Shown in pieces: positions 8,949 through 58,458 of a DNA stretch of 64,000 bases. This DNA comes from Nemertoderma westbladi (taxonomy: Eukaryota; Animalia; Xenacoelomorpha): contig JAUCBJ010007147.1 of NCBI GenBank assembly GCA_032718475.1, positions 44,083 to 108,082 of the forward strand, in the 5' to 3' direction. The notes beneath the pieces are model-generated. The model was not told where the DNA came from, ran no database searches, and saw nothing but the letters and a program-made list of their open reading frames with translations. Made by a program: the position numbers and the translations under genes. How positions within the stretch are numbered: position 1 is the stretch's first letter; every line of letters begins with the position of its first letter.

Positions 8949-8957
8949 GGGGGGGAG
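8949..8957 (+). other. Polypurine tract of BEL element copy 1
   Basis: GGGGGGGAG immediately 5' of the TG-starting LTR; same arrangement at 11638-11646 and 19951-19959 (minus). Confidence 0.85.
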
Positions 8958-22911: not shown

Positions 22912-23252
22912 TCCGAACTCTCTCACTCGCTCACCTGTAAGGTGGTGCCTTGCCAAGGCGCAGTACAGATGAGTGATAAGGTTAAGATGGTCTGTACAGT
23001 TCGACAATGGCTTATTTCTTACTTAACCTCGAGTTATAGCCTAATTTTCCCTACTTAATTTCCAAAACCGCTAAATTGTACCCTAAATTGTAATTTTGTC
23101 CATTACTTTAATTATGTTCCAGAATTTTCCTCCTACTGTTACCATAATTTGTTTAATTTCTATTTCTATTTTATTTTAATATTTAATCTAACCCTATTAC
23201 TGTGCTACTACTTCTGCCAGTGGATTATCCTACTTTATAATCCGCATTCTGG

Positions 23253-32462: not shown

Positions 32463-32644
32463 CTTTTTCTCTTATATTATAAATATTTTATGATTATTTT
32501 TAAAATTTTGATCTTTTTAACTATGAAAAAAAAATCAAATTTTAAATAATCGAAAATTGTAGTAGTATTTGTATATACAGTATATCAGATTTGTTTGTTG
32601 TGTATTGTGGTAATTATTTTCAATTTACTTTAAGATTTAGAAAA

Positions 32645-32941
32645 ATGGATATTTTAAACGAAAAATGTCCTGTTTGCTATTCTAAATTATTGCAACATCG
32701 AGATTATTATAAATGTGAAAATAAACATGGAACTTGTGCGAGATGTATTGTACAATATACCGAAATGAATAATTATTGTTCTCAAATTTGTCCTATTTGT
32801 CGCGCACCTATATCTAAGTTAAATATGAAGTTGGCGAGATACGAACCCTATTATTGGAAAGAGCTACGAAATATAACTTATATTTCCACACAAAGTAATG
32901 ATTCCGGTGATATATTTACAATATTGGAGAATATTTTTTAA
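32645..32941 (+). CDS. Small C3HC4 RING-finger protein
   Basis: CPVC-x11-CENKHGTCARC-x14-CPICR. Confidence 0.75.
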   Translation: MDILNEKCPVCYSKLLQHRDYYKCENKHGTCARCIVQYTEMNNYCSQICPICRAPISKLNMKLARYEPYYWKELRNITYISTQSNDSGDIFTILENIF

Positions 32942-33326: not shown

Positions 33327-34010
33327 ATGGCTGACTTTAATTCAGGTCCATATATTTTAAACTTTCAAATGGGAACGAGTATGATAATTTCTGGCCCATC
33401 TGGTTCCGGAAAGTCTACTTTTGTTGCCTATTTAATTAAACACAAGAATGGTTGCTTCAACGAACCCCCCTTGCGAGTATTGTATTGTTACAGGAGCAAT
33501 CCCCCAACTATTCCGGGTATTACTCACCTTTACAAAGGTTTGCCTGAAAATATAGATAGTTTAGTAAATAGTCGAGATTTATTAATTATAGACGATTTAT
33601 TAACAGAAACTGAGTCCAGTACAGCCTTAACTGTATTGTTTACTAAGGTTGCTCATCATTCCAAAATATTTATTTGTTTCATAACGCAAAACATGTTTTA
33701 CGGTGCGAACCATAACCGTACAAGATCAATTAATTGCCATACCTTAGTATTAATGAAAAATCCACAAGACAGTTTACCGGTTTTAAATTTCGCAAAGCAG
33801 ATGTTACCTGGGCATACCAAATTTTTAGTAGATTCCTATCAAGATGCGACTATTGAACCATTTTCGCATTTCTTAATTGATTTACGACAGGAAACACCTG
33901 AAGATTTAAGATTTAGATCGGATATATTTCGTAATCATAATTGTTACATTAAAAATTACATTGACTATAAACATAGCGAAAATAATAATAATAATTATTA
34001 TTATTATTAA
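33327..34010 (+). CDS. Polinton A32/FtsK-HerA-like DNA packaging ATPase
   Basis: Walker A GPSGSGKS, Walker B LLIIDD, ITQN, RTRSIN, LMKNP, LIDLRQETPE.LRFRS. Confidence 0.9.
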   Translation: MADFNSGPYILNFQMGTSMIISGPSGSGKSTFVAYLIKHKNGCFNEPPLRVLYCYRSNPPTIPGITHLYKGLPENIDSLVNSRDLLIIDDLLTETESSTALTVLFTKVAHHSKIFICFITQNMFYGANHNRTRSINCHTLVLMKNPQDSLPVLNFAKQMLPGHTKFLVDSYQDATIEPFSHFLIDLRQETPEDLRFRSDIFRNHNCYIKNYIDYKHSENNNNNYYYY

Positions 34011-35555
34011 CCCTATTAAACCCGGGGGGGGTCAATATGACCCCCCCCGTGGTTTTTTTATTATAATTCTGAAACAAACGCAGTTGGGAATCTGAAATTT
34101 AATGACTTTTCCTAAAAATCTATTGTCTTCCTAGTAGTGAAAACCGTTTTCAAAAATATTGGGTACTTTTCGAGTTATAGCACCATTTTTTAACCCTACT
34201 TTTGGCACTTTTTTTGAGACGTTTTTTGAAAATTACATTTCATTAAATATGAATTGTAACATCTCTATTTTTGATTTACACCGGTTTTTTGGTGTTAGAA
34301 ATTTGATGGAATTCATATAAATTGATTTAGAAATTTCAAACTTGTTTTTTTCGGCGGGTGCCAAATTTTGGTGCCAGCACCAAATTTCGAAATAAGTCAA
34401 TTTTGTAAATTGATCGTTTGAAAGTTGTTTTTTACGCAATTGGGGTTTTTTGGGTTTCTGGATTCGATGAAATATATACGAGTTGCACCAAGCGTATCAA
34501 ACTTGTATTTTTCGGTGCTGTGTGCAAATTTTGGTGCTAGCACAAAATTTTGAAAATCCATTCAATAGATAAAATTGCTTGTGACAATTTATTTCTTGCG
34601 TTTTAGAGGTTTATGGCTGTTCTGAATTCAATGGAAAATATAATTATCGATCTAGACATCTCAAACTTGTATTTTTCGGATGTGGGTGCAAAATTTGGTG
34701 CTAGAACCAAATTTTGAAAACCATCAAATATATCAATTGATTGTGTCACCTTGTTTCTTGCGTTATACGGGTTTGTGATGGTTCTGAATTCAATGGAATC
34801 AGTAAAAATTTCATAAGAGTTCTCAAACTTGTATTTTTCGCCGGTGGGTGAAAATTGTTGTGCCAGCACCAAATTTTGGAAAATATGCAAATTGATAAGT
34901 AGATAGTATCGCGTTATACGGGTTTATGAGGGTCCTGAATCCGATGGAATCAATAAAAACAGCACTGGACATCGCAAACTTGTACTTTTTGGTGATGGGT
35001 ACGAAATTTGGTGCTAGCACCAAAATTTGCTAAATTACGCCGAAAAATACAAGTGGCAATGATCTGGCATATTAGAAATGTATTCCATTAGAATCAGCGC
35101 TCTCGAAAACCTGAAAATGTGAATTTATAGCATCGTATAAGTGAATTACAAATTTTGTGTTCTAACTGAAAAGTGCTGGTTACTTGTTTTTTTCATTTTT
35201 TTCCTACGCAGAGAGGACTAAACAGCCATTTATAGTAATCATATCATTTTTTAATATTTTCCAATGTATTTTGCACCCCAGAAAACCTGTATTGAAAAAT
35301 AATTAGCCGAAAATGTAACTTTCAAATTTGGTGAAAATTGTGCACTACTTGTAATTTTGGTGCTGCAATATAACCACCCCAGTACATTTTTTCGAAATTT
35401 TTTTTTTTCGGTCGGATCCAGACAAGTGATACCTACGTACAAACAAAAAATCAGACGTTTTCGTAAATATTTGTAGATTTTAGAGGGGGGGGGGGGGGTC
35501 AATATGACCCTTCCCCGGTATTTGTACAACATTTTATAGCCCGGTACTAATAGGG
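34011..35555. mobile_element. piggyBac-type non-autonomous element (CCCT ends, TTAA TSD)
   Basis: TTAA|CCCTATTA...TAATAGGG|TTAA; subterminal GGGGTCAATATGACCC palindromes; empty site at 47551-47554. Confidence 0.9.
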
Positions 35556-35592
35556 TTAATATTTTGTAACAATTTTCAATAATGTTGCAACA

Positions 35593-35976
35593 ATGAATAG
35601 ACTTGTGCAGAAATATTGTAACGAATTGGAATTTCTACGCAGCGCTACCCCTCAACAAAGAACTTATTTTATTAACCATACCGCGAGTAATGAATTAATA
35701 TGGCTCATTGTAAATACTGCATTAAATGTTCTAAAAGGTAACATACAATTGACCCCCCATTCATTTAGAAATATTCGTTGTTATAAAAAGGTATTAAAAT
35801 CACTCAACCGCAAAACAAAAAATATATCAAGTTACAGAAAAAAGTTAACCAATCAATCTGGCAGTATACTTCCGTTTCTAATACCCCTACTCGGCATTGG
35901 CACGAAACTCGCTGCAGGAGCTGGTGCTGCCGCCGCTGGAGCGGCTATTGCGAAAAGAATTAACCGCGGACGGTAA
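35593..35976 (+). CDS. Polinton basic virion core/membrane-active-type protein
   Basis: Basic N-terminus then NQSG(S/G)ILPFLIPLLG, resembling the QxGG-hydrophobic protease-cleavage motif of Polinton proteins; second copy at 47588-47971. Confidence 0.7.
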   Translation: MNRLVQKYCNELEFLRSATPQQRTYFINHTASNELIWLIVNTALNVLKGNIQLTPHSFRNIRCYKKVLKSLNRKTKNISSYRKKLTNQSGSILPFLIPLLGIGTKLAAGAGAAAAGAAIAKRINRGR

Positions 35977-36197
35977 TAATGGTTAAAACGGGAGTAACAT
36001 TTAGAAAATTATATTTAGTATCGAGTAAACCGTTAGCTACTGATTTAAAACCTCAAGATACACCTAGAGTAAATACTACAAAAAGAAAACCCTTCAAAAC
36101 ATCAACTTCAAAGAAAATAAAAAAATTTCAGCTGTTTTTACGGTGATGCCCTTTATAAGAGATTTGAATATACATATTACTTGCGGTTGTCAAAAAG

Positions 36198-37284
36198 ATG
36201 CCGCGCAAGATGAGACCGATTTTAAGCCAAAGCTTCGACAAAAAACTGTTAAGAATTTCTTCAGATCCTTCATCACCTGCGGGTTTTGCAAGTATCGCAA
36301 AATTAGCAAAAGCCGCAAACATCAAACCATCTCAAGCTCTGAAATGGTTGAGTGGGCAAAAGACATACTCCCTTCACACACCACGTAGACATCATTATCC
36401 AACATCTAAAATATTTACGGAGGGTTAAAAGATATATATATGATAGATCTGGTGGATATGCAGCAATATAAATCTTACAATAATAATTATAACTATATAT
36501 TAACATGTATTGATGCCTTTAGACGGCTTGCTTTTGCCTATGGTATGAAAACAAAAACAGGTATTGAAATTATTAGTATATTGCAAAAAATATTCCAGAA
36601 AGGTAAACCAAACAGAATCGCGACTGATCAAGGGTCTGAGTTTCTAAATAAATCTGTAAGGAAATATTTAGATAGTATTGGAGTACAGTATTACGTAATG
36701 TACTCTGTGAATAAGGCGGCTATTGTCGAGAGATTCAATAGAACATTAAAAACAAAGATGTTCAAAATTTTCATGCAACGGGGGAATAATGCTTGAATAA
36801 AAATTTTACCGAAGCATATTTTCGCTTATAATAGGTCATTTCATAGGACTATACAAATGACACCCATTGAAGTTAATAAATTTAATGAAACTGAATTAAT
36901 TAATAGATTATATGGGAAATATAGACAGATTAATCACAAGAAAATAAAATTTCAAGTTGGAGATACAGTATGATTATCTATTGCGCGTACTGCTTTTGCT
37001 AAAGGCTATCGAGAACAATGGGCACGTGAATTGTTTATTATTCATCGGGTCAGATTGGATAGAGTACCAGCGGTAATGTTTGATATTAAGGACAGCGCCG
37101 GTGCTATAATAAATGGTTGATTTTATTCATACGAACTCCAAAAGGTCCACCCGAGTAGTAATATTTATCTTCCGATTGACAAAAATATTGGCAAACTTAA
37201 AGAATGTGTGTGCAATGGGAAAAAGAATATTTAGTCCGATTCATTGGATCCAAGAAACAGTCGTGGGTACAGCATATTAAATAA
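36198..37284 (+). pseudogene. Polinton retrovirus-like (RVE) integrase with several stops/frameshifts
   Basis: DPSSPAGF, WLSGQKTYSLH, IDLVDM, YILTCIDAF, DQGSEF, KAAIVERFNRTLK, FAKGY..W..ELF. Confidence 0.9.
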
Positions 37285-37553
37285 GTTTAGGTTTATACTG
37301 TATATTAATTCATTGCGCGAATAATGGTCACATATGGCCATAATTAATCAATATTAACTCGAATGATATTACTATACTATACTGTAAGTCTAATATCTAT
37401 AGTTCATTCGCTTTAAATAAAGCCAGTAAAATATTGATCCCTTGCATATACTGTAGAAGCAATGAACGTGGCGACAGATGTCTATAATTTAACATTATAC
37501 TGTATGTACAAAGGAGTCAAGTAGAGAGAGGGAGAGCTTAAATAATAATAATA

Positions 37554-39621
37554 ATGGCTATAGATACATATATCACTCTAGTTTCAGATAGCTCATTAAA
37601 CACATACCCCAATAATAACCCTAGTGAGTTTACTGTTGATTTAGCCGAAGAATTATATATTGGTGTAAACGCTAAAATTGGGCTTGCCGAGATTCAATAC
37701 CAAGCAACATACAGTAATATTACTTTGCAAACTCAAATCTCACTGTCAATCGGGGTAGATGCAAAAGATACCAAATCATACAGTTTATTTCCTGGTATGC
37801 ATAGCTCTATTCAAGTCATTATTGATGATATAAATAAACTGTTTAATTCTGAAGCGAAATATAAAGATTTCGAATTAATTTTTAATACAAATAATTCTAG
37901 AATTAAATTTAAATTTCCTAAAAAGTTGAAAAAAATACAATTAAGTCTACACGGTGATTTAATACAAATTCTAGGCTTAAAACAATTATTGGATCAAAAT
38001 CATCTGGGTATTCAGAATTGGGATATATACAGTACAACTACCGTAGATGAATTAAGCAATATTAATCGATATTATTAAACGATATATTAAACGATTAAAC
38101 GATATATTAAACCGATATTAATTTTAAATTTATTTAAATAATAATTTAATTATAATATATAATTATAATAAATAATTATTTAAAATAATAATTTTAAATT
38201 ATAGTGGACCAAAAATTTCAGAAATTGGTATTTTACATTTTCCGGATCCAACAAATATTACTGTAATAAAGATACAATCTTCATATATACAGATATTAGT
38301 GAAAGCTCTTTTGTTGGTGAAGCTTTAGCTATAGCTCCACTCTTAAGAACCTGTCCTTTAACCCTATTAAACCCGGGGGGGTCAATATGTCCCCTCCCAT
38401 GGTTTTTTTATTATAATTCTGAAACAAACGCAGTTGGGAATTTGAAATTTTATGACTTTTCCTAAATATCTATTGTCATCCTAGTAGTGAAAACCGTTTT
38501 CAAAAATATTGGGTACTTTTCGAGTTATAGCACCATTTTTTAACCCTACTTTTGGCACTTTTTTTGAGACGTTTTTTGAAAATTACATTTCATTAAATAT
38601 GAATTGTAACATCTCTATTTTTGATTTACACCGGTTTTTTGGTGTTAGAAATTGACAATGGAATCAGTAAAAATTTCATAAGAGTTCTCAAACTTGTATT
38701 TTTCGCCGGTGGGAGAAAATTGTTGTGCCAGCACCAAATTTTGGAAAATATGCAAATTGATAAGTAGATTGTATCACCTTGTTTCTTGCGTTATACGGGT
38801 TTATGAGGGTCCTGAATCCGATGGAATCAATAAAAACAGCACTGGACATCTCAAACTTGTACTTTTTGGTGATGGGTACGAAATTTGGTGCTAGCACCAA
38901 AATTTGCCAAATTACGCCGAAAAATACAAGTAGCAATGATCTGGCACATTAGAAATGTATTCCATTAGAATCAGCGCCCTCGAAAACCTGAAAATGTGAA
39001 TTTCTAGCATCGTATAAGTGAATTAAAATTTTGTGTTCTAACTGAAAAGTGCTGGTTACTTGTTTTTTTCATTTTTTTGCTACGCAGAGAGGACTAAACA
39101 GCCATTTATAGTAATCATATCATTTTTTAATATTTTCCAATGTATTTTGCACCCCAGAAAACCTGTATTGAAAAATAATTAGCCAAAAATGTAACTTTCA
39201 AATTTGGTGAAAATTGTGCACTACTTGTAATTTTGGTGCTGCAATATAACCACCCCAGTGCATTTTTTCGAAAATTTTTTTTTTCGGTCGGATCCAGACA
39301 AGTGATACCTACGTACAAACAAAAAATCAGACGTTTTCGTAAATATTTGTAGATTTTAGAGGGGGGGGGGGGGGGGGGGGTCAATATGACCCCCCCCCCG
39401 GTATTTGTACAACATTTTATAGCCCGGTACTAATAGGGTTAACACAATTAAATCGGAAATATATTAATTACGAATACGAGAGCATTTGCTATTACTCATT
39501 GTTGAATAAAAAACTAAAAACAATCTTAATTACTTTACGTGACGGTCAAGGTGAATTAATTAATTTCAACAGTGGTCGCACTGTTATAACACTTAAGTTA
39601 ATATGCGGCGGTGATGGATGA
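37554..39621 (+). pseudogene. Polinton minor capsid (penton) protein 1, disrupted and split by a MITE
   Basis: YITLVSDSS..YPNNNPSEFTVDL, IGLAEIQY; FIYTDI..SFVG..PLLRT (~38280-38357); ITLRDGQGELINF..TVITLKL (~39530-39600). Confidence 0.8.
38362..39438. mobile_element. piggyBac-type MITE, internally deleted sister of 34011-35555
   Basis: Same TIRs; TTAA at 38358-38361 and 39439-39442; lacks ~470 bp of the interior. Confidence 0.9.
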
Positions 39622-42225: not shown

Positions 42226-44836
42226 CTAAGCCCATCCTGATACCGAGATGGAAATTATCCGAACTTTTCGTGATTTATTTTTCTCCTATCCCATTTTGTG
42301 GTACTCTAAGCTTGTCAAAATACTCCTGTGCTATGGGACTCATCGGCGGCACCTTACCTAACTGCCTACCAAACCCCTTCATAGCTAGAAACTTGAATCC
42401 GTCCAATGGCAAAGCTCTCCGTTCTTGTCGAGTGTGCTGGTCTCTCGGAAGTAGGGAGTCTAGTTCTACCGAAATCCTGTGTCCCTTGAGGTCCCCTACC
42501 CCGTGCATGGACTTTAACTCTATTTGGATCTCCTCTGCGTCCTGGAAGCTAGAAACGGCTCTCGCCACTTCCTTGTCGATATAAGATAATATGGACACAG
42601 TGTCCAACATCACATATACTCTCTTCGATCTCTTATCTCCAGTAAGTTTCACCGGAATCACGCTAAATATCTCCGACGTGGCCAATGATAAATACGTCCG
42701 CACGCTGGTCGATGAACTATCCGCAGTGAAACCTTGGCAGGTCACCTCTCTCGCGCTCGCCTCGCCATCCTCGTCTGTCGAACCTGGTTGGTAACCGTCG
42801 TCCTGGATGCTGGTGTACGTATTTCTCCTTATCGATACGGGATCTCTGCTCCCCTTCCTTTGAGGATTTCTCTGTAAGTAACGGTCCGTTGGGGTATGGA
42901 AATCCGCATGTAGCAACTTGTGATGTAGTCTGCCGCATTCCATGCATCCGTCCTTGCTGTTCGGGCACTGCCGCCATACATGGCCTGGCGCAACACATGC
43001 CCAACAGGTGTCCAACATCCACACTTGAACGCTTCTCTGTTCCGAAGTTAATTCTTTGAACCGTCTGCAACTGTCTAACTTATGGTCGTCAGATCTTACC
43101 TCCTTTAGTAAGCAGAATTGGCAACCTACAAATCCAACCGGCAACTCCTGTTGCTTTATCTTAGGTCTATCTAACCGCTCACCTGACCATACTCGCGAGT
43201 CTGATCTAAAGGCAGGGGTACTCGAATTATATCTGTCTACTGAGTTGAAAGTCACAGTGGTCCTGTCATTGTCAAAACTTACCATTGACTTACTGGTAAC
43301 AGGTTTAACTCCCTCATATTCTCCTCTGAAAGTTTGATTTCATCTCTGCTACCGCATCTGTGGCTATCATGTCATGGATGTGTTGAAGTGTCAACACCTT
43401 ACCTTGACCCTCTAACTTATTCTCTAATTTGCGCCATTTCTGTCGGTAACGCATGTTTAAACGTCTTATTTATTATGCTCTTCAAAACTTTGGTGTGATC
43501 ACCATGATGAGGTAGATTCACCGTCCTCAAGATGTCTAATGCGTTTGAAATAGCGTTCGCTAAGTTCAACAGCTCTAACGGAGTTGTAATCCTTCCGCCC
43601 TTACCCAAGTCTACCGAATTCTCGAAATTGGGATTATGTATCGTCGGGACAGGCATTCTCACCTGAGGTCTATGTGGTATAGTTGCCTCCGATATACGTA
43701 CTCGTTGACTAGGTTGGACTTTATCTGACTCAGGCCTGCTAGGATTTGAATTACTTCTTACCTGGGCTGCTTCCTTTAACCGTAGGTTACTGAGCATGTC
43801 CGTTATAGGTTGGATGTGCGGCGATATAGCTTGCGCTAAACTAGCACTCAACTCATCCCTCGTAATAAATTCCTGGCTAGGGTTCTGTTGTGTTGTCGGC
43901 TCTATCTGAGTAATCCGCTGTCTCTCATATGATCCCTCTTCCGGTTTAACCCGGAAGTTATCCGTCGAACTGGGTCGGCGCTCCGTCCGCATATTCCAAG
44001 CCCGCGGGTTCGGTTCGCCAAATACTCGGCCCATCGGAGTTTCTCCTCTAAACTTTTCATTGTCACGTTCAGTATGTAGTGGTGCGGTGTTTTGATGACG
44101 TGGATTCTGCGCGATGGGTGAAGCACTAATACCAACTGGTCTGCGATATGTAGAGAACGGTTTAGCGATCCGAGTACTTGTAATAGCTGGACTGGGTATA
44201 GGAATTCTGGTCGTCGTCGACTCGCGTATAGTCGGAGTTCTCGCTTCCTGTTTGGCCTTCTGCAGTGTGAACAGTTCTCACAACTCGGTCCCTACACTCG
44301 CCCCACATTCTTCGATCATTCGCATCCCATTCTCGGCAATTTCATTCGCCTTCCTAGTCCGTTCTTCGCTCTCTAAATTTAATCTCGCACTTTCCAACTG
44401 CGCCAGTTTACGTTCTTCTTCTTCCCTCGCTCGTCTCGCTGCGCTCTCCTCTTTCACACGCGCCTTCTCTTCATACAATGCGTGTCTTCTTTTCTCAATC
44501 TCGAGTTCGCGTTCCTTGCGCTCATGTTCGAGTTGAAGCTCGCATTTCTTCTGTTCACGCTCGAGTTCCTTGCGCTCGCGCTCGGCTTGAAGTTCGTAAG
44601 ACGCAGCGAGACTACTTTACTTTACTTACTTCATAGCTACTTTACTTACTTTACTTATTGCCATCTCATAGCTGTCCTCTAATGCCTCACGCTCGAGTTC
44701 CTTGCGCTCGCGCTCGGCTTGAAGTTCGTAAGACGCAGCGAGACTACTTTACTTTACTTACTTCATAGCTACTTTACTTACTTTACTTATTGCCATCTCA
44801 GCTGTCCTCTAATGCCTCCTTCTCTGAGACACTCAT
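42226..44836 (-). pseudogene. BEL/Pao gag-protease, fragmented
   Basis: Coiled-coil N-terminus; CQFC..HKLDSC, CWACVAPGHVWRQC, CMECGRLHHKLLH; protease-like VIPVKL..YVMLDTVSILSYI. Confidence 0.85.
44557..44818. repeat. Tandem duplication (~130 bp x2) near the gag start, containing a (TTAC/TTTAC)n insert
   Basis: 44557-44687 is repeated at 44688-44818. Confidence 0.85.
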
Positions 44837-45475
44837 AGTCTAAATAATATTTGCCTTCCTGCCAAAATCTCGCATAAAATTCGAGATATATATAATTTAA
44901 TCGAAAATACGGTTAAATTATTTGTCAAATAATTGGTTGGTCACAAAATATCAAATAAATTCGCAATACAATATTGTGAATTAAATAGGATATAGTTATA
45001 GCAAATACTAGTACAATATTTAAACAAAAATATTATTTTATAGCTATTATGTAGCATTTAAATACTGGTATGACACAAATAATTTCTGAATCTAATTCAA
45101 AATATTCAAAAATGAACTTGCCACCCAAATATTTCTAATTTTACTATATAGCTCTAATCAACGCAATTTTAATTTCAAATATTATATGTATCCACTAGCG
45201 CGTGGCTACACCTTCGGGTTGCGACACTATCTCTCTCTCTCTCTAACTTGAGCGATTCAAAAAACCATGGCCGGCTAAACCTAACTAACCTAACTAATAA
45301 ATTGAGTTCAGCTTCGCAGTTAAACAACCGGTAATTTTTTACCGCTTCCACAAACACAATGGTGCCAACAGAACAACTAACCTTGTTTGCTGTGAGATTC
45401 CACGTCCGCGTCCAAAGTTTCAGGCTCTTCGCTGATTGCAAACCGAACCCGCAGACCCACACGAACCCCAAACTC

Positions 45476-45493
45476 AGAAGCTCCGTCTTGCCA
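45476..45493 (-). other. Putative primer-binding site TGGCAAGACGGAGCTTCT
   Basis: TGG directly after the LTR-terminal CA; cognate tRNA not identified. Confidence 0.55.
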
Positions 45494-46991
45494 TGTATCT
45501 CCAGATGGTATAAAACAACTAAGCGGTTATCTAATTATTACGCAACGGGTTGCACTAGTAGCAGTCTAAATACCGTATTATTTTCGACCTAATCAGTAAT
45601 TATTTATAGTAAACTAAGAAATAGAAATCAATCAAAGGGAAAAGAGCGCCTATCTAAGCATTCGTGATTTATTAGGCACACTTTAGTAACACACCAATCA
45701 GCGTAACAATCAATAATTAATACTTACCAATTATAGTTCCTAATGTACAATTCACAATCAGCAGTCAGCAATTCACAGTTCACAACTCGTAATCTACAGT
45801 TCGCACGTTGTTTGCGACGTAGTCTACAGTTTAGCTCGCAATGTAAAGCACGCAGGCCTCTCCCGGGTACATCTAGGCTTCCTAACTAAACCAATTCCTG
45901 CCCCCCTAATACTACAAAATAGAGACAAAATCTGGATCATCAGCCCCTAATTACTGTACCAGCGAGTGGTCTTCACTCTACAATGCTAACTGCCTGACCG
46001 CAACGGTGACCTCCCCGCCAGCGTTGCTTGCCTTTGAATCCTCCGCACTCCCTTCGTCGCTAACCCCCCGATGCCACGCCGCGCCTACTGGTACCTCAGC
46101 CCTCCATCTAATGGGTAGCTACCGTAACAGCGCATGCAATCACAAAGTCTGACAGTCTAAGAAAATCCCGTGGGATTATTGCATTGAAAGGAATCACATA
46201 GAACCATTAACTAAAGGGTAGAAATCATAGTTCCAGTTGTAATTAACAGTAATCATTGGGATTGATTGAGAAACACACCAAGAAATCAGCAGAGATTACA
46301 AATTAGTGAATTATTGCAAGAAATAATTGAAAAAGGCAGAAATACGCAAAAATACAGAATAATTAGTCTAAATTACGACTAGAATTACAAAGCACATACC
46401 GGAAATACCGCCTATTTATAGGTGATTCATGGAGGATGATGCAATCATTCTCTCATTGGCTCCCCAATCCACGCTACCATTAGACCAACCTGGAAGCAGT
46501 TAGGCCAATAAGGAAGCCGGATTGTGAACCTATCGCTCCCGAAATCACAAATTATTACCATATATGGTAATTTTGGCAATGCTTAATTTAGCGGTACTAA
46601 TAATATGATGCATAAAGATTAATTTAGTGCAATTATAAAGAAAATTAAGACCAATACATAGCTAGCCCTATTGAGGCTAATAACAGCAAGCTTATATCCA
46701 GGGTCCAACAGGAAACTTGCTACCCTGGAACTATTTACTTATATCTTATTACAAAATTACGTAGGTAGGGCTACATACTATACAAAATGGATAAATTCAA
46801 ATATATGGGCGTTTTATTTTCCTTATCTAAATATCGTTGCGCATTATTATGGCTTATCTAAATAATTATACTGTATAATGGCTAATATATTATACTGTAT
46901 AACGGCTAATATATTATACTGTATAACGGCTAATATATTATACTGTATAACACGACGGACTAATATAGGTACAGCGCCATATACCGCAACA
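45494..46991 (-). repeat. 5' LTR (~1.5 kb) of BEL family 2
   Basis: TG...CA ends; homologous blocks shared with 52038-53243 (e.g. CTAAATACCGTATTATTT, AGCGCCTATCTAA). Confidence 0.7.
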
Positions 46992-47554
46992 AGAATGGTT
47001 GCTTAAACGAACCCCCCTTGTGAGTATTGTATTGTTACGGGAGCAATCCCCCGACTATTCCAGGTATTACTCACCTTTACAAAGGTTTGCCTGAAAATAT
47101 AGATAGTTTAGTGAATAGTCGAGATTTATTAATTATAAATGATTTATTAACAGAAACTGAGTCCAGTACAGCCTTAACTGTATTGTTTACTAAGGTAGCT
47201 CATCATTCCAATATATTTAGTTGTTTCATAACGCAAAACATGTTTTATGGAGGGAAGCATAACCGTACAAGATCAATTAATAGCCATACCTTAGTATTAA
47301 TGAAAAATCCACGAGACAGTTTATCGGTTTTAAATTTCGCAAAGCAGATGTTACCAGGGCAGACCAAAGTTTTAGTAGATTCCTATCAAGATGCGACTAT
47401 TGAACCATTTTCGCATTTCTTAATTGATTTACGACAGGAAACACCCGAACATTTAAGATTTAGATCGGATATATTTCGTAATCATAATTGTTACATTAAA
47501 AATTACATTGACTATAAACGTAGCGAAAATAATAATAATAATAATAATAATTAA
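46992..47554 (+). pseudogene. Polinton packaging ATPase lacking Walker A (cut by the LTR junction)
   Basis: Aligns to 33327-34010; in-frame TGA at 47021-47023; Walker B IIDD changed to IIND. Confidence 0.85.
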
Positions 47555-47587
47555 TATTTTGTAACAATATTCAATAATGTTGCAACA

Positions 47588-47971
47588 ATGAATAGACTTG
47601 TGCAGAAATATTGTAACGAATTGGAATTTCTACGCAGCGCTACCCCTCAACAAAGAACTTATTTTATTAACCATACCGCGAGTAACGAATTAATACGGCT
47701 CATTGTAACTACTGCATTAAATGTTCTAAAAGGTAACGTACAATTGACCACTCATTCATTTAGAAATATTCGTTGTTATAAAAAGGTATTAAAATCACTC
47801 AACCGCAAAACAAAAAATATATCAAGTTACAGAAAAAAGTTAACCAATCAATCTGGTGGTATACTACCGTTTCTAATACCCTTACTCGGCATTGGCGCGA
47901 AACTCGCTGCGGGAGCTGGTGCCACCGCCACTGGAGCGGCTATTGCGAAAAGAATTAACCGTGGACGGTAA
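47588..47971 (+). CDS. Polinton core-type protein, copy 2
   Basis: 127 aa; NQSGGILPFLIPLLG. Confidence 0.7.
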   Translation: MNRLVQKYCNELEFLRSATPQQRTYFINHTASNELIRLIVTTALNVLKGNVQLTTHSFRNIRCYKKVLKSLNRKTKNISSYRKKLTNQSGGILPFLIPLLGIGAKLAAGAGATATGAAIAKRINRGR

Positions 47972-48218
47972 TAATGATTAAAACCGGAGTAACATTTAGA
48001 AAATTATATTTAGTATCGAGTAAACCGTTAGCTACTGATTTAAAACCTCAAGATATACATAGAGTAAATACTATAAAAAGAAAACCCTACAAAACTCTCT
48101 CAAAGAAAATAAAAAATTTCAACTGTTTTTACGGTGATGCCCTTTATAAGAGATTTGAATATACATATTACTTGCGGTTGTCGAAAAGATGCCACGCAAG
48201 ATGAGACCGATTTTAAGC

Positions 48219-50486
48219 TGGAGCTTAGACAAAAAACTGGGAACGAAAAGTACCCGCACGCCATTTCCTGCGCGATATTCCGAGCGCTTCTCCGCACTTT
48301 GGTCTTTATGTGGCTATTGGCGTAGGTTTCGAACATAACCATATTTCCCATAGCGGTTACATCCTTCGTAGGACACTTTATATTGCAGCGGGGGCTAGCG
48401 GAATGTCCACTGAAACCGCATGTTGTGCAGAGGTTATAGAGGGTTGGACAAAATGAAACATCATGTCCCGATGTCGCGCAGTAGGGACAATAAAGTATCC
48501 CGAGGAGCTGGAGGCACGAATCGGTTACCCGATTTCTCTTACCACTTGGGCACTGCTCCGAACCGCAGTTTCCGCACACCACCAGTTGCATCTCCCGACT
48601 GAAGAATATTGGAATCGGGATGCCAGCGTAATACTCAAGTCGTCGGTCGCATTTAGGAATATTCGCCGTGGCCGGTAGCCCGCGAAAAGCTGGGCTTTGG
48701 CGTAGTATGTTCTCGTTTCGATAACTTTCTTTATACCCTGCCAGTCGCATCCCGGGCGCCCGTTTCTGGGAGTGGATCCATTCGGTCTGCTAGGCGTACC
48801 ATCGGGTAAGTCGCATAGGGTCCTGTGGAACGGAAGGGGTTGTTGCCACAGCTGGTCGGCGAAGAGGTGCCGGGCGTTCGACGGAGGAATTCCGAGGAGA
48901 CACTGGGACCCTTTTCAACCTGTATCGCTGAGCGGGTCCATTGGGTGCTGGTACTCGGGATCTCCGAAGACCAGTCTTCTCCCCCTGGGAACGGATATGG
49001 AGACAACCTCTGACATATGTCGCCGAAGTCATTTAATGCGAAGGTAGTTACTAGCTCCCTAGCGGGACTACCGGAGCCAAGTGGGGTGGATACGCCTGCT
49101 TCCGTCGCAGGTTCGGCCGATCCCGGCGACTTCCGGATCGAGTTGTCGCTTTGGGGTGGACAGCTGTAGCCAACCTTCCTGTAGCCATAATTCCTCCCCA
49201 TCCGAAGAAATCAGTGGTTCCTCCGCACCGAGGAGATCAGCAATCGTAGGGATGTTGAACGGTCCATTCTTGTCCCAGGATGCGATGACGGTGAGCGTTT
49301 TCGTCTCTCCCGGTGAAATATTCTCTACCGCTTTGAACGCGTGGTCGATAACTTCGTTCCACTCATAATCGGTAAAGGATCTAGGAACCGCCTTAATGAG
49401 ACTATTGAGAGTTTTACAGATGAACTTAGCAACTGTGTATGATTCCATAACGACCTAGATATAGTTCCGTCGATCCGGATTCTCCCACTTGTGGTGGATC
49501 GTCCACTTTCTTTCAACATCCTTCCAGCGACTCTCTCGCTCACTCTTTATTTCTAATTCCGGGTAACCACCATATATCTTATTATAATCCTTGAATTTTT
49601 GGGGTTTAAAATCTATACCGCCATTTAGCACTGCGAGGTAGCCGATACCGGATTTCATCCATCTCACCTCTCGGAATCCACGCATGAATTCTGCGGATCG
49701 CAACCTGGCTAGCAGTGTTTGGGTGTCGACGCAATGACTAATGGCGTTGAGATCTTCTTGACGGTTTCTTCCGAAAGCGTAGTCGTTTCGGACGTCCGCC
49801 TTTATATCCGACCCGATTTTAATGATGTCGAAGTCAAATAGGATCTTTTGGATCTCAGGTGGTAATAGCCAGATCGCTCCGGCTGTCCGCACCTCCTGTT
49901 TGGGTGTCGGAAATATTCGACATACCAACACCAAACCGTCTAGGGTTCCGAGGACGACGACCAAGGATCGACCGTATTCCTTCGTCCTATATTTCTCTTG
50001 GTAGTCGTCGCGATTCTGGATAACTGATATACGTTCCTCTCGCAGCGTCGTTGTACACTCCGCTAGGTTTCCCCAGTGGGCGAGGTACGTACTCTTGTCG
50101 TCGACGAAACTTTGGCATCGCGCCAACGTAATCGCTTTCGAGGTGGGCGTCGCGTTTCCCTCGTTGTCATATATCAAACATCGGGATTTGTAGACGCTTT
50201 GCCGGAACGTTTCCCAGAACGACAACTCCTCTCCTCCGGTTGCCTTTGCGTTCCGAGTTCTTTGCAGTCTCGTACTAACATCGGTCAACCGGAGCTCACA
50301 TAGATTCCGGGAATCCGGTCCCTCTCGCCCGGAGAATTTAACGACTCGCACATTCTCATTTATCAGGGCATTCCATTTTGTATCAAACTTAGGAGATCCA
50401 GGCTGTGGATATTCCAGTAAATCGAGTGTATTACATATTTCGCCGAGAATTTGGCGATTTGGGTCCATATTTTCAATTATGTCCAT
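48219..50486 (-). pseudogene. Divergent homolog of the DEDD-exonuclease/zinc-knuckle gene (stops, frameshifts, 3'-truncated)
   Basis: LIYDNEG, LPPEIQKILFDFDIIKIGSDIKAD, CVDTQ, SGIGYLA; CPYCATSGHDVSFCPTLYNLCTTCGFSGH; FETYAN..AQEMACGYF. Confidence 0.75.
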
Positions 50487-50689: not shown

Positions 50690-50875
50690 TTTCCAATTCT
50701 TTTCTTTCTACATTTTATACATTTTTTTTTTCTTTTCTCATTTCTCATTTATTACTCATTTCACATTTCATTATTTCTTCACATTTCATTATTTCTTTCC
50801 ACATTTCATCATTTATTTCACATTTATTACACATTTCATTTATTTCCATATTTCATTTATTTCCATTTCATCATT
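50690..50875. repeat. Low-complexity (ATTTC/ACATTTCATT)n tract
   Basis: Directly visible. Confidence 0.8.
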
Positions 50876-51049
50876 GGGGTTATAGCCCCCCGGCTATCAT
50901 CATTTGTTATAAGTGCAGCACCAGGGTGCGCATCATTACATTTTCATCAGCATATGCGTCATCATTCAGTTTATAGTAGGGTTGTCTGTTTCTTTTCATC
51001 ATTTCCAACTACATTCAACCATCTTCTTTGGGAAATTTTCGTTGTGGAA

Positions 51050-51470
51050 GGGGTGTTACGCAGCAATCTGGGATCTACAGCTGGGCTAGTTACACCGCCT
51101 ACGCCCCAAACTGCACACGTAATGGACAATAAAGACGCTGGAAGTGAAGTCACGTAGAATGCACCAGGGACCAATCAGAATAACACTCCCAACAACATAA
51201 AGCTCAGCCGACAAAGTCATGTGGGATGGGGTTACGCAACATTCTGGGATCTACAGCTGGACTAGTTACACCGCCTACGCCCCAAAATCCACGCAACGGT
51301 CCCACCAGAATAACGAGACTGAGAAATATAAAACCTCTATCGACGAAGTCATGTTGATGCACCATGGACCCACCAGAATAACGGGATAGAGGGGGTGTTG
51401 TGCGGCAATCCGGGATCTACAGCTGGACTAGTTACACCGCCTACGCCCCGAACTGCACACGCAACGGACA
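51050..51470. repeat. Three ~170-bp-period repeats with a conserved ~40-bp core GGGATCTACAGCTGG(G/A)CTAGTTACACCGCCTACGCCCC
   Basis: Cores at about 51070, 51247 and 51412. Confidence 0.85.
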
Positions 51471-52037
51471 ACACAATACAACACAATGTGTTAAAGAAAT
51501 CTCAAAGGGGATTCTTCCTTTTGATATGTTCGTATTTTCGAATAAAACAATGAGGTTAATCAAACTATAACATACCAAGCTAATTGCCCTAAACACAAGC
51601 CGAAACAGAAACAACCAAAACAATAAATCTGATTTTGCTTCCCAAGCTACTTAATACGAGTGTTGGTGACTTAACACTCCAATTGTTCACCCTTCACAGA
51701 GAAATAAAGCAGTTCGTCAGGCGGACAAATGTTGAATGTAAGAATATTTAATAATGCAAAAGGGGGGAAATTATTTACCTAAACCCTGGTACCCTTAGCG
51801 CTGACTGTAATCAGCTATATTACTGCTCGCTACGCTTGCAACTACTGTAGACTTGCAAACCCGCTATTTTTTAGATAACCACCTAGTGTAAATTTGTCCA
51901 AAGATATTTCTGTATTTCCTAAGTGTAAATAACTAAAACTATTCTCCGCTATTCTTCGTACGAAGTCCTTATTTTATTCTAAATACTATCATACATAAAC
52001 TACATTTACTCAAATGTACGTTGCGAACTAATTATTA

Positions 52038-53243
52038 GGTATTCCAGAATTTGTAACGCTAATTAGTTACGTTACTGGGCTACACTAAAGACAGCCTAAA
52101 TACCGTATTATTTGAGCTAACAGTAATTTAACAAGCATAAATAGAAAACAGAAACAATCAAGGTATATAGCGCCTATCTAAAACATTACACATAAATAGC
52201 GTTAGCATTAGCATAGCATTAGCATAGCATTAGCATAAACGTAGCATTAGCATAAACGGCTAAGGTCACCCCAGATCAATGTGATCTTTCTACCTAAACC
52301 TAGCTAGCCTAATAGCAAATCTGAGAGACAAGATCTAGGTCGCCTTGCCCCTAACAGCCTTAATGGCGACCGGCCCTCGGTCCTAAACTTAATTCAGCCA
52401 ACCGCAGCCACCAGCCCCGCCGGTAGTGCCATGCATTGGATCCTCCAACTTCTCCCGTCGCTTCCAAACAGTGAGCCTGCGGTGCCTACCCCTAGCCCAA
52501 CATGTTAAAGAGGGCAGTTACCGTAACGGCGCAAACATAGTAAAAACCAATCAGACAGTCAGACAGTCGAAGGAAACAAACGTTGATTTTGGTTCACTAC
52601 ATTGCGGCAATTATATTTGCAATCAGAAATATATAATCAACAGTCAGACTAAGCAGTAATCATATTCAAAAGTCACAAATGTATGAAGAAAGCAGCAACA
52701 TTTACAACCAACGGAAGTGCAAAAAACGAAGAATAAAGATGGCTACTGCTAAACTGTAGGAATGATGCAAAGTCTAAATTTGCTCACATAATCAGGCGAC
52801 ATCCAGGGTTGTCTCAGCTGGATTTTCGACCAACCAGTGGGCAAAACTCAATTTAGGATCATTAATGCACGTAATCGCCTCAACTTAATTTGGCGATTAT
52901 TAAAAGCACAATTTAGGCGTTATTTTAGCACAAACATCGATTTATAGGGAAATGTAAATAAAATTAACACAAATGTATTAGATTCAATAGATATTGGAAA
53001 ACGGCAAAATTCATATTTTGTTTTAAAGAATTTTGCCACCGCAAATGAATATATCAGGGTTTTATTATAAAATGACGTAAATAGGGCTACATACTGTATA
53101 AAATCGACTGAATATAAAATGAACTTGTATATTTTTTTATTTACCCTATCTAATTATTACGGTTGCATATCAATACGCACTTATCTAACTTATTTTATAC
53201 TGTATAACGGGTTGTTCTGTACACAACGCCAAATATCGCAACA
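52038..53243 (-). repeat. 3' LTR (~1.2 kb) of a BEL family 2-related element
   Basis: Minus strand GGAGCGG (PPT-like) then TGTTGCGATATTTGGCG; homologous to 45494-46991; distal end inferred from where homology stops. Confidence 0.65.
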
Positions 53244-55307
53244 CCGCTCCAAGGGAAACATGTAATGTTTCTCTCCAATTGCAGAAGAAATATGGCGGTG
53301 TGGAATAACAAATAAAATTTACTTTCAAATAAATCAATAAACTTGGTTCTATTATAATTCTAATACATACAAAATATTGCTACCTTTACTGCATAAATTA
53401 TTACATACAAATACAAATTAGATTACAAAATATACTTCCTTCGAATTATTTACAAAATTAACAATTTACTTATTGAAATGAAACATGGCTAGGACTATGT
53501 CCCCCATTTCCCATCTCAAATTATAGAGAACAATAATAACAAAAGAACTAAAATATAAAACGTATTTGAGGCTAAATGTTTAACTAAATATTATTGCGTT
53601 TTAAGGCTGACAATCAAATTAAATATAAAATACGTAATAATTTCTTTCAATTTCGGACTTTACTTCATAAAAACGCAAATCATCTTGGTTTGATGATTGC
53701 TCAGGTAAGAGAAAGGAGTAAGCCAAACCCGCGGGTTTGTCTCCCCAATCACTTCCTTTGCCTCTTTCAATAAACTTTAGAGCAAATAAAGTCATATACA
53801 CAAATCAAATATAGTATAAAGTATTTACTATTTCCAACGGACTATAAAGTAAAAGTATTTCCTTTCAATATTTTTCGGCCTTTTTTTTTATATAAAAAAA
53901 AAATTCTGTCTAAACTAAATCAAATGAAAAATAAGTATAACATATATTAAAATCCACTTGTGATGGGTGGGCAATAAATCTAGACGTATATATCAGAGCG
54001 ACGATGATATATAAAGCATTGGACATATTCGGGCTTAATAATACATGCATCAAAACTTCCCGAAATAATTTGGAGTAAAATATCGTATAAATCGCGGATC
54101 GTGGGTATGGTTAGTAGACGGATGGATGGCGCGAGTCTATTGGATGTCGGGACAGCTTGCGTTGTCTTTTCGCGTCGTATCTTTACCTCATCGGCACTCA
54201 CATCGACATCTCGACTAAGGCAGGAGTAGTATGAGTTCCAATCTCACTATATAAGGATCTGGAATCGTAGTCGTCAGTGTAACAGACGTTGGGGGTTTCT
54301 TTCCGCTAAAATTGACGGTTATCATCGGGTTACTCATCGGATCGCTTTCGTCCTTCTGGGCTCCTCCAAACACCAACGGATGGCGCTTCAAAATTCTCGC
54401 GACTATGTCTGTTATCAAGCAAGTTACCGTGTTTGATTCCAACAATAGATAATACTGCAACGAAGCACGAGGTGGTGCGCAAATGTTCCAATATACCAAC
54501 GCTTGTCACTTGAAATGGGATTTGAACTCAGCTCCCGGCGGCGTATTATATTCACTGTACGCCTCCTCTTCTGCGTCTTCAACTTAAAACCCAATTAGAC
54601 AATAAATGAGCTATAAAGCCCATACCAGTCTTGGCTCGACATCCCGAGCTACCTGGCCTGCCTTCCAGCAGTTCAGGTTCGGCTCTCTAGATCCCGTCTC
54701 ATTCCTAAACTAACGTCTTAATCTATTCCCATGCATAGCGCAAAAACTTTGGAGATAAACTGGCCGTGACCGACTCACTTTTTTGATGCCCAAATTACTC
54801 CCCAAATACTTGTACTAGAATACAGTAGTTAGAACAGACATTATTTGGGGCGCTCGACTATACCAAACCCACGGGTTTGATTATCGAACACCTCTCTCCA
54901 CTACAAACTACTGAGTGGGGTCTGTGTACGTCGCTGGTGCTACTAACCTTTAGCACCTTTGGTTGTTGTACTGTTGGCACCAATCTGTGGAATCTACTGA
55001 ACTCAATTTACACTCCTAAATATAATATCCGTAACCATGGTGTTTAGATACTATGTCTTCCAACTTGTCACGACTTTCAAAATTACTATACTCTTATAAA
55101 CATGTTCACATGTTTATTCTACGTTTGAATTTGTCTTGGGTTCAACTGTAATTATAATTTTTAAACTTTCAAATGCAAAAAAAAAATTTATTTGATACCC
55201 ACCAACAAATTTTCAAACGCAATTCTCCACAAACCCGCTCCTATATTATGCATTTCCAAGTATTTGCATATGAGGAATGCATATAAAGTGAATCTGCGTT
55301 TCTGGCA

Positions 55308-56663
55308 TTAATTTTGTTTTGAGGCAGAAGACAAGTTATAGTCTTCTGTCTCAATGTGTGTTGGTGACAATTGCAATCCCACTGACGGAATCTTCGAATC
55401 CAAATCCGCAGATTTGTAAACCGAAGGCTCCACTGGTGTGGTCGTTTCTTGTCGGTTACTTACTAACTGGGACCCTGGAGCTCCTTGCGCAATCTGTAGG
55501 GGTGGCTTTATGTCATAGCTAACCCTTCCAGATTTTGTGGTCACGTATGTCTCTTGATCCAAGAAGTCTATAGGCCGTTCCAATGGGTCTCTAGGCCGCT
55601 CCACTGAGTCTCTAGGCCGCTCCACTAACTCTCTAGGCCGCTCCAATGAGTCTCTTGGCCGCTCCAATGAGTCTCTAGGCCGCTCCAATGAGTCTCTAGG
55701 CCGCTCCAATGAGTCTCCAGGCCGCTCCAATGAGTCTCTAGGCCGCTCCAATGAGTCCTTAGGCCGCTCCAATGAGTCTCTAGGCCGATCCAATGAGTCT
55801 CTAGGCCGCTCCAATGAGTCTCTAGGCCGCTCCAATGAGTCCTTAGGCCGCTCCAATGAGTCTCTAGGCCGATCCACTGAGTCTCTAGGCCGCTCCAATG
55901 AGTCTCTAGGCCGCTCCAATGAGTCTCTAGGCCGCTCCAATGAGTCTCTAGGCCGCTCCAATGAGTCTCTAGGCCGCTCCAATGAGTCTCTAGGCCGCTC
56001 CAATGAGTCTCTAGGCCGCTCCAATGAGTCTCTAGGCCGATCCACTGAGTCTCTAGGCCGCTCCACTGAGTCTCTAGGCCGCTCCACAACACCTACTTGA
56101 GACGTATCTAAGTTCTGACACTCTGTTATGTAGGTATATGTATTGACGTCACAACTGTGTTCTAACTGGTCGTTATCAGAACATAACTCCTCCTCCGAGT
56201 CACTAGCGTTTTCATCATGGTCTTTACAATCTCTTCTTGAGACATCTATGTCTGGAGGGCCTATGGACTCGCGTGAGTATAGAGATGTAGCTATTATCTT
56301 ACCTCTCACTTTATCCGAGTTTTCCTGTAGATAACGATTTGTAGGAGTATGGAAATCGGCTTGTAGCAGTTTATGATGTAATCTGCCACACTCTACACAT
56401 CCGTTTCCACTGTTCGGGCACTGGCGTCTTACATGACCTGGAGCAAGACATGCCCAACAGGTATCTAACGTCCGCACTTGAATCCGTCTCTGTTCTGAGC
56501 TCAGTTCTTTGAAGCGCCTACAATTTTCCAACTTGTGGTCGTCTGACCTTACTTCCTTTAAGAAGCAGAACTGGCATCCCACAAATCCAACTGGCAAATC
56601 CTGTTGCTTTATACTAGGTCTGTCTGACCTCTCACCTGACCAGACTCGCGAGTCTGATCTCAA
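55308..56663 (-). CDS. BEL gag C-terminus (three Cys/His motifs) fused to ~25 ERPRDSL heptads; 5' end cut off by an RTE
   Basis: CQFC..HKLENC, CWACLAPGHVRRQC, CVECGRLHHKLLQ; frame stays open across the repeat. Confidence 0.75.
   Translation of the reverse strand: MRSDSRVWSGERSDRPSIKQQDLPVGFVGCQFCFLKEVRSDDHKLENCRRFKELSSEQRRIQVRTLDTCWACLAPGHVRRQCPNSGNGCVECGRLHHKLLQADFHTPTNRYLQENSDKVRGKIIATSLYSRESIGPPDIDVSRRDCKDHDENASDSEEELCSDNDQLEHSCDVNTYTYITECQNLDTSQVGVVERPRDSVERPRDSVDRPRDSLERPRDSLERPRDSLERPRDSLERPRDSLERPRDSLERPRDSLERPRDSVDRPRDSLERPKDSLERPRDSLERPRDSLDRPRDSLERPKDSLERPRDSLERPGDSLERPRDSLERPRDSLERPRDSLERPRELVERPRDSVERPRDPLERPIDFLDQETYVTTKSGRVSYDIKPPLQIAQGAPGSQLVSNRQETTTPVEPSVYKSADLDSKIPSVGLQLSPTHIETEDYNLSSASKQN
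55562..56087. repeat. 21-bp minisatellite CTAGGCCGCTCCAATGAGTCT, ~25 copies
   Basis: Directly visible. Confidence 0.95.
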
Positions 56664-56670
56664 GGCGGGG

Positions 56671-58458
56671 GAATGGTTACTCTGGTTATATTTGTCTGCT
56701 TACTGGGCGGAAAAGCCAACCAACCATCAAGGTTAAGGCTGAATCACCAGCCGATCGCCTCAATGGTTGGAAAGCCCACTTTGAAAAGCTCCTCAATAAT
56801 GACAGGGTATTGCCTGATAACTTTATAGAAGTAAAAGTGTCTGAGTCTGTACTCCCAGATATTCCCATTGGCGATATCTCCTTTGCAGAAGTGAAGGCTG
56901 CTGCAAAGAGCATTAAGACCAATCGTGCCAGTGGAGTAGATGGTGTTCCCCCTGAGGTCTTTAAAATACCTGAGTGTTTAAAGCTCATCTATCCCATCAT
57001 AGTAGACATGTACCATACAACAAGAGTCCCACAAGAAATGAAAACAAATAAGTTGGTGCCAGTTCCCAAGAAGGGCAACCTAACACTCTATGGTTCTTTT
57101 CGGGGAATCTCATTGATCTCGATTGCTGCAAAACTATACAATAGAATTCTATTAAATCGCATCAGGGATCCCATTGAGAGACTGCTACGTGGAAATCAGA
57201 ATGGGTTCCGTAAAGGTCGTGGGACCATGGAGCCAATTTTGGCACTTAGAAGGATAATTGAAGAGTTATCAAAAAAGAAAGACAGGCATCTGGCTGTTAT
57301 CTTTGTTGACTTCTTCAAGGCCTTTGATTCAGTCTCTCGCTCACGTATGTTCAGCATACTTTCATTATATGGGATTCCTGATGAAATTATTGCAGCAATC
57401 AGATCAGTATATGATGGTTCGACAACATTTGTGTCTACTGTTGACGGTGACACAGAACCATTTGAAGTGTTATGGGGCGTCCTCCAAGGAGACACACTTG
57501 CACCATTCTTGTTCATTATTGTGGTTGACTATGTTCTACGCATGTCCTTAGATCATCATAATGATGATGGGGTGATGATAACTCCACCTACTGGCTCCAG
57601 AAGTCGAGGAAATCCTGCCAAGTACCTAACTGATCTAGACTTTGCTGATTACTTAGGAGTACTCTCAGAATCATTAGAGGGAGCCCAGCGGCTCCTCAGC
57701 TCATTAGAACATGCTGCTTCTAGTGTTGGTCTTTTTATTAACTCCAGAATGACAAAAATTCTGACAGTTAACTTTGAAAGTCCTCAGCAAGTCTCTGATC
57801 GGATGAGCATAAGCTCAAAGGATGGTATGCTTGAGCATGTGGACGACTTCTGTTACCTGGGATCATGGATCCGGAAGTCAGGTGAGGACCTTCGAATACG
57901 TAAGGGAAAGGCATGGGCAGCCTTGAATAGGCTTTCCAGGATTTGGAAGTCACCTAGAATTAATCGGAAACTTAAGGTCCGATTATTTAGAGCAGCAGTA
58001 GTTCCAGTACTCCTCTACGGGAGTCCATGCTGGGCTCTAACTGCTGAGGACACCAAATCTCTGGATGGCACATTCACAAGAATGCTACGCCGGGTACATT
58101 GTGTCAAGTACAATGCACACATCTCCAACCAGACACTATATAACATTGGAGGTGTCTCATTGGTTCCCCTAAGCTTGACACTAGAACAAAATCGCCTCCG
58201 CTTTCAGGACATTGCTTTCGCCGTGAGGAACAGCCAGTGCATAATCTTGTACTTTGGCAGCCTCATGGAGTGAATAAGCATGGTGGACAGCCCATGACTT
58301 TCTTGAGACGCATCTTAAAGGACACTGGCCTTAAAGATGCGGATGATCTAGCAAATGTCATGGGTGATAGGGAGTTTTGGCGGTGCAATTTTGTTGACAA
58401 GCCGGCACAGCATTCTTAAAAATGCAGCTGCAATGCAGCATGCCGATCCTAGTAGTAG
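56671..58458 (+). mobile_element. RTE-clade LINE family B, 5'-truncated; RT ORF 56810-58273 with a late frameshift; short (TAG)n tail
   Basis: ASGVDG, PKKGNL..FRGISL, QNGFRKGR, FVDFFKAFDS, GVLQGD, FADY (mutated FADD), FCYLGS. Confidence 0.9.

Follow-up and report, generated by a model that had tools for sequence, protein, structure and literature searches.

Juno and Vesta, two LTR retrotransposons of bdelloid rotifers, have a third open reading frame (ORF3) that has been described as an exonuclease of the DEDDy type and that also occurs in Athena/Terminons (PMC5408684); the DEDDy third ORFs of Juno, Vesta and Terminons are covered in two reviews as well (PMC6431247 and PMC5718144). In the Belpaoviridae, the extra genes are given as env-like only (ICTV profile, PMC8742986). 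No exonuclease ORF of a BEL/Pao element was found in the main texts searched, and one may exist in Repbase, GyDB or older Genome Research and EMBO Journal papers; the term 'exonuclease' is absent from PMC3118150, PMC2774666, PMC13524379 and PMC3587641, and nothing was added by passages of PMC3985635 and PMC11662393. Among cellular enzymes, RNase D of Trypanosoma brucei (TbRND) has zinc fingers that raise both RNA binding and cleavage (PMC7797062).

The window, that is, the whole stretch of 64,000 nucleotides that was analysed, consists of animal-type repeat DNA in which BEL/Pao pol occurs together with Polinton-like pieces and a number of LINE fragments, and it harbours copies of an accessory ORF from two subfamilies (A and B). 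Our overall reading, held with reasonable confidence, is that the subfamily B copy (copy B) is a dead copy of a BEL/Pao accessory gene, the product of which is predicted to be a zinc-finger-tethered 3′–5′ RNA exonuclease that likely counters host small-RNA silencing.

Copy B and its subfamily A relatives in the window

Copy B (48240–50486, minus strand) is a decayed accessory ORF that comprises a DEDDy exonuclease, a linker and a Cys/His module and is truncated at its 3′ end. The exonuclease domain (49374–50219, minus; profile match at E 7e-26 plus alignment) harbours an insertion of ~55 residues after ExoI, with the D-x-E of ExoI at 50160–50168, the Asp of ExoII at 49794–49796 and, based on alignments, a Glu at the ExoIII acid column at 49443–49445 (all minus). 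A TAG stop (49455–49457, minus) lies within the ExoIII motif. The linker (48577–49373, minus; from three-frame translation) is partly Ser/Pro/Thr-rich and has no single frame that is open throughout, which implies at least two further breaks. The Cys/His module and the start of an unnamed conserved domain follow (48240–48576, minus) and are cut at a junction; one of the knuckles is canonical (C-x2-C-x4-H-x4-C), one has a x5 spacing and the first of the three is degenerate. The positions of ExoI, ExoII, the stop, the Glu and the Cys/His module on the minus strand agree with the original prediction, as does the reading of the TAG as in frame with the next ORF (49068–49454).

The 3′ end of copy B is not natural, as the conserved tail ends at a junction beyond which the sequence (47551–48239) matches a Polinton stretch, with 95% identity to 35556–36248; and as this Polinton-matching sequence runs up to 48239, positions 48219–48239 are outside the gene. 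Copy B is dead: it carries the ExoIII stop and at least two more breaks, and its 3′ end is cut by the Polinton fragment. The fragment itself (46989–48239, plus; an ATPase piece and a small ORF) is Polinton/Maverick-like, shares 95% identity with 33442–34009 and 35556–36248, and adjoins the 3′ end of copy B as a neighbour, not as a carrier. Its ATPase piece gives a weak Pox_A32 match, and we take the name Polinton also from the gene order, the ORFs after the small ORF being presumably integrase-like and capsid-like. The Polinton/Maverick-like element, with a packaging-type ATPase and a small ORF, is present as two fragmented copies (33327–38078 and 46989–48239); BEL-related sequence truncates the second on either side. 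An LTR-like segment of ~1.4 kb that starts with TGTTG begins at the ATPase-gene junction, and a small RING-finger ORF (32546–32941; below curated cut-offs) lies by the Polinton-like region.

Sequence like that of copy B is repeated in the host, as seen in host contigs. Copy B very probably derived from a BEL/Pao element with the accessory ORF, the pol of which is absent from the window. No pol remnant was found within 6 kb upstream of it; on the same strand, an LTR-like segment (52059–53245, minus; colinear with the segment upstream of BEL gag at 42275–44700) and a gag fragment are located farther upstream, and the 3′ end is cut. Contig depth of this LTR-like segment is below that of the 5′ part of copy B. 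The spacer upstream of the ORF (50725–51471) features AT-rich repeats and three copies of a ~180-base unit. Two BEL gag fragments (42275–46991 and 55308–56699) are ~80% identical with no pol nearby, and the latter contains 25 copies of a 21-base in-frame repeat.

Subfamily A includes an intact accessory ORF (copy A1; 5694–8243, plus) with ExoI at 6042–6050, the ExoII Asp at 6267–6269, ExoIII as Y-x3-E at 6558–6572 (all plus) and three CX2CX4HX4C knuckles. Upstream of it is a BEL/Pao gag-pol (335–4492, plus) that encodes protease, RT, RNase H and integrase, with one in-frame stop at 3221–3223 and with Pfam matches to Peptidase_A17 (1.7e-40) and DUF5641 (9.5e-24). Behind it are a purine tract (8949–8957) and an inferred 3′ LTR from TGT at 8958 to ACA at 9497 (8949–9497 together, plus), so that the element runs in the order of the pol end at 4492, the ORF, the purine tract and the LTR. 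Copy A2 (9498–10956, plus; LTR end at 12219) is without its 5′ part, and copy A3 (20634–22930, minus; LTR end at 19392) is frameshifted. The LTR end of A1 at 9497 adjoins the middle of the A2 ORF, which suggests that one family member was inserted into another. A 32-base tandem array occupies the spacer upstream of the A1 accessory ORF (4588–5208).

In the A1 model, a nuclease, a long disordered linker, three knuckles and the unnamed domain are found in this order. The nuclease region, mostly at pLDDT 70–95, matched Nibbler with Z of 14.3 over 202 residues (rmsd 3.5), followed by a polymerase proofreading domain (13.8), WRN (13.5) and RNase D (13.4), with TbRND (12.9), Exd1 (12.7) and Egalitarian (12.4) lower and the top rows tied; such scores do not discriminate RNA from DNA enzymes, as the domain at 13.8 is that of a DNA polymerase. 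By this model, the A1 nuclease is predicted to adopt the DEDDy (DnaQ-like, RNase H-like) fold, and that of copy B would be placed there by profile only. Sequence profiles matched TbRND, EXD2 and WRN, with TbRND the best over both parts (E 7e-10). The unnamed conserved domain after the knuckles, which had been noticed earlier, was borne out and features the motifs F-E-x2-A-x2-G-x2-T and W-G-F. For the Cys/His module plus this domain, there was no match in Pfam and no PDB sequence match at E 0.1, and for the Cys/His module no Atlas match above 0.86.

Extent, carrier and descent of the family

As had been stated, copy B has no DNA similarity to 5694–8243 (best blastn match of 12 bases, E 0.72). 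The proposed homology of the two proteins held for a profile of outside proteins and for BLASTP of the knuckle parts (pairwise E 1e-8), but not for pairwise BLASTP of the nuclease domains, where the best E was 0.18 and 34 of 211 aligned residues were identical. The family profile, built from the 33 longest outside proteins with zero window sequences included, matched the nuclease part of copy B at E 2e-23 (71.7 bits) and its knuckle part at E 2e-18 (55.2 bits). A profile of the exonuclease only scored 88.3 bits on copy B, with a maximum of 5.1 among shuffles (563 of 1,000 reported) and −0.6 for the reversed sequence. By these comparisons, copies A and B belong to one family, beyond chance.

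That the family is old and diversified, as the original prediction held, is supported by 62 clusters at 50% identity and at least 120 metagenome loci. The former are the 62 relatives that A1, as query, retrieved from 1.84 billion representatives, matched chiefly via the knuckle region; the latter came from a search with a DNA pattern of the H-x4-C-x2-LH-x2-C-x2-C-x2-RGH motif, which is present in 50 of 65 proteins, and 80 of them, among the matches listed, have flanks. Many of the metagenome loci have similar record names, and their hosts may be few. Pfam gave zero matches in any window copy of the accessory ORF and recognized the nuclease in one of 36 family members; HRDC was found by Pfam in none of the 36, in 35 of which it also misses the nuclease. 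In word-based protein searches, neither A1 nor the 36-row alignment gave a match, a third search of this kind returned five proteins without a name, and cluster annotation of 20 family proteins read solely 'hypothetical protein'. Four loci (L005, L015, L043 and L051) have accessory ORFs of 1300–1600 codons with long N-terminal extensions that have no Pfam match, and in protein P0002 the Cys/His module is present twice.

The type of element that carries the family, which the original prediction left unnamed, is BEL/Pao for A1 and for most outside loci. The queries for the flanks were window proteins of the BEL, LINE and Polinton types, none of them Gypsy. Among the matches listed, 40 loci extend 3.5 kb or more upstream, and in 34 of these a BEL-like integrase lies directly upstream on the same strand; three of the remaining six have the exonuclease and three (L071 and two others) have neither and may be chance matches of the pattern; five of the 40 shorter loci also have both integrase and nuclease, and the order of integrase, exonuclease and motif was found in 37 of the 80 flanked loci. 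All six of the upstream polyproteins tested contain Peptidase_A17, RVT_1 and DUF5641 (Pfam). Behind the ORF, outside loci such as L006, L060 and L076 show a purine tract, a TG start and a primer site. Given these upstream integrases and polyproteins, the purine tract and LTR behind the ORF and the layout of A1, the family is a third-slot gene of BEL/Pao elements, located between pol and the 3′ LTR. TGGCGCC primer-binding sites, which we take to be of the tRNA-Lys type, follow the LTR in L006, L009, L013, L029, L033, L060, L076 and others. An exonuclease has reportedly been noted in nematode Cer7-type BEL elements.

Trees of the integrase and of the accessory ORF agree. For 33 elements among the matches listed, the Mantel r was 0.89 (0 of 2,000 permutations), and strong splits were shared in 13 of 16 cases and in 12 of 12, with none in conflict; these trees comprise only elements with both genes, from hosts that may be few. 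Such agreement suggests that a BEL/Pao lineage captured the gene once, long ago, and has since passed it on by inheritance. The earlier view of an old, diversified family is retained, but 'not a one-off gene capture' is not, as the trees point to one. In the Glu-type subfamily A, dN/dS was 0.10 for the nuclease domain and 0.07–0.08 for the Cys/His module; among outside pairs, where one value is saturated, it was 0.04–0.54 for six pairs of a catalytically dead clade and 0.08–0.52 for seven Asp-type pairs. Judged from these ratios, the accessory ORF is under purifying selection, the dead clade included.

The ExoIII residue and the catalytic states

The D-x-E of ExoI and the Asp of ExoII are present in A1, A3 and B. 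The canonical ExoIII Y-x3-D was found in none of them: A1 and A3 read Y-x3-E, and B has a Glu with a stop within the motif, so the window proteins are variants of the DEDDy fold. In the A1 model, the ExoIII Glu is within a confidently predicted helix (residues 283–310). The original prediction of YxxxE in both subfamilies is correct as to a Glu at the ExoIII acid column of each, but the full motif is legible only in the 5694 subfamily; in B, two alignments place the residues upstream of the Glu differently and the stop is inside the motif.

The Glu of the proposed variant DEDE-y site, although each window subfamily has it, is the less common state in the family. The outside set consists of 86 rows (59 loci and 27 proteins, near-duplicates included, among the matches listed), of which 37 have the full Asp site, 4 have Glu with intact ExoI and ExoII, 29 lost at least one catalytic residue and 16 are incomplete; among the 41 with intact ExoI and ExoII, therefore, ExoIII is Asp in 37 and Glu in 4, and Glu was rejected as a hallmark of the family. 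The first position of ExoIII is Tyr in 34 and His in 3 of the 37 Asp members. Thirteen of the 29 rows with lost catalytic residues carry Glu at ExoIII. The catalytically dead forms make up one strongly supported clade, both in an 80-row tree, which omits nine rows that were incomplete or duplicates, and in the integrase and ORF trees. Two further clades were observed, one with Glu at ExoII (L003, L041 and L058) and one in which His replaces the ExoIII Tyr (L010, L077 and L079).

No canonical Asp was found elsewhere, in keeping with the original prediction. The residue after the Glu is D, S, N, C and N in the Glu members, and this variation means that no conserved Asp serves as a replacement; the Asp beside the Glu in A was accordingly rejected as a substitute ExoIII acid. 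The Glu is thus real and uncommon within the family: subfamily A conserves it and B carries it. It is probably a variation that one subfamily tolerates or that weakens the enzyme there, not a new chemistry. In the Klenow exonuclease, a Glu at the ExoIII position reportedly leaves partial activity. We lean slightly towards a Glu-type nuclease that still cuts.

Possible roles and comparison with known systems

Two alternatives concern what copy B is. Its contact with Polinton sequence at 48239, with no pol upstream, would be expected if subfamily B travelled as cargo in the Polinton next to it, or in some other type of element, and not in BEL/Pao. However, the junction cuts through a conserved domain, contig depth differs several-fold across it, and the other Polinton copy continues into unrelated sequence without B, as do host contigs; moreover, no Polinton ATPase matched among the at least 120 loci listed, and two motif patterns had 0 matches in viral contigs. 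Polinton cargo is thus very improbable, and was rejected, as other Polinton copies lack the gene at the corresponding position. The ExoIII Glu might instead be the mark of a single DEDE-y subfamily, ancient and catalytically distinct, to which A and B both belong, which we regard as rather unlikely. Each window subfamily has the Glu, as do four proteins from outside, and the residue after it is N, D, S or C, versus A, V, H or G otherwise. When the catalytic columns were masked, A fell together with two Glu proteins (91/84); among 32 picked rows, a single clade for the six Glu rows tested, both window subfamilies included, was not rejected (AU p 0.41; 0.78 in a quick run); the '100/99' of the Glu group is against the dead group alone and is no clade support. 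Yet B remains an unplaced long branch, and Glu also occurs within the dead clade, nested among Asp members.

As for the role, a counter to silencing ranks highest, at somewhat under an even chance, followed by escort of the element's own RNA and, far behind, by editing of cDNA. The less likely escort role (packaging or germ-line transport), like that of the nuclease-dead Egalitarian or EXD1, would account for purifying selection on a catalytically dead clade, for Egalitarian and Exd1 among the fold matches and for the nucleocapsid-like knuckles; it is at odds with the 37 of 70 complete outside rows that retain the full catalytic set across very deep divergence, and Gag already has knuckles. 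Editing or polishing of cDNA or RNA ends in reverse transcription, by proofreading or end trimming, is improbable: RNases match no better than do WRN and the proofreading domains of polymerases, but such a role needs catalysis, and 15 of the 33 elements in the integrase tree are of the clade without catalytic residues; the ORF is, in addition, separate from pol.

In the counter-silencing reading that we prefer, the knuckles would quite probably, by analogy with TbRND, hold on to single-stranded RNA and guide its 3′ end into the nuclease site. As a whole clade without catalytic residues is conserved, RNA binding would probably be the core job, with cutting optional. The targets may be silencing RNAs or their precursors, which active forms would trim and dead forms sequester, although we put this at less than even. 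More speculative, and doubtful as a whole, is an undescribed ancient Belpaoviridae branch with a dedicated anti-silencing protein in the env slot, in which a captured Nibbler/EXD-type nuclease, joined to a new zinc-binding RNA module, would have diverged during an arms race with the piRNA pathway of the host, so that active Asp forms, variant Glu forms and catalytically dead decoys arose.

Copy B by itself is only a fossil, but the family has natural members that are intact, dozens of them, and these cover three catalytic states. They would allow a natural test of whether an ExoIII with Glu can work, and they include a conserved domain without a Pfam or PDB sequence match. BEL/Pao extra ORFs have been described as env-like, and here a conserved, inherited accessory gene of nuclease type is found instead. 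What a retrotransposon gains from a DEDDy nuclease, a question from the rotifer work, becomes testable.

With the Belpaoviridae of the ICTV profile, the elements share a gag-pol of PR-RT-RH-IN, an extra ORF before the purine tract and 3′ LTR, and a length of ~10 kb; they differ in having a nuclease ORF instead of an env-like third gene and, in many cases, TGGCGCC primer sites versus tRNA-Arg or -Gly in the profile (PMC8742986). Nibbler/mut-7, EXD2, WRN-exo, EXD1 and Egalitarian (DEDDy domains of the DNA_pol_A_exo1 type) share the fold and the layout of ExoI, ExoII and ExoIII, but are host genes without the knuckle module and are 11–16% identical. TbRND (PDB 7c42 and 7c45) likewise joins a DEDDy domain to C-terminal CCHC fingers, yet is a cellular mitochondrial enzyme with a short linker, four fingers and no conserved domain after them (PMC7797062), and the common architecture may be convergent. 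The closest likeness in an element is ORF3 of Juno and Vesta, an RNase D-like DEDDy exonuclease in a separate ORF past pol, in the env slot, with an acid swap in its motif that reads DEED there (PMC5408684). The carrier here is BEL/Pao, and the ORF has three knuckles plus an unnamed domain as fused extensions; the present family also includes ExoIII-Glu and dead forms. Finally, purifying selection acts on this family, which looks ancient and co-inherited with the integrase; the rotifer ORFs, by contrast, are described as recent and near neutral (PMC5408684).
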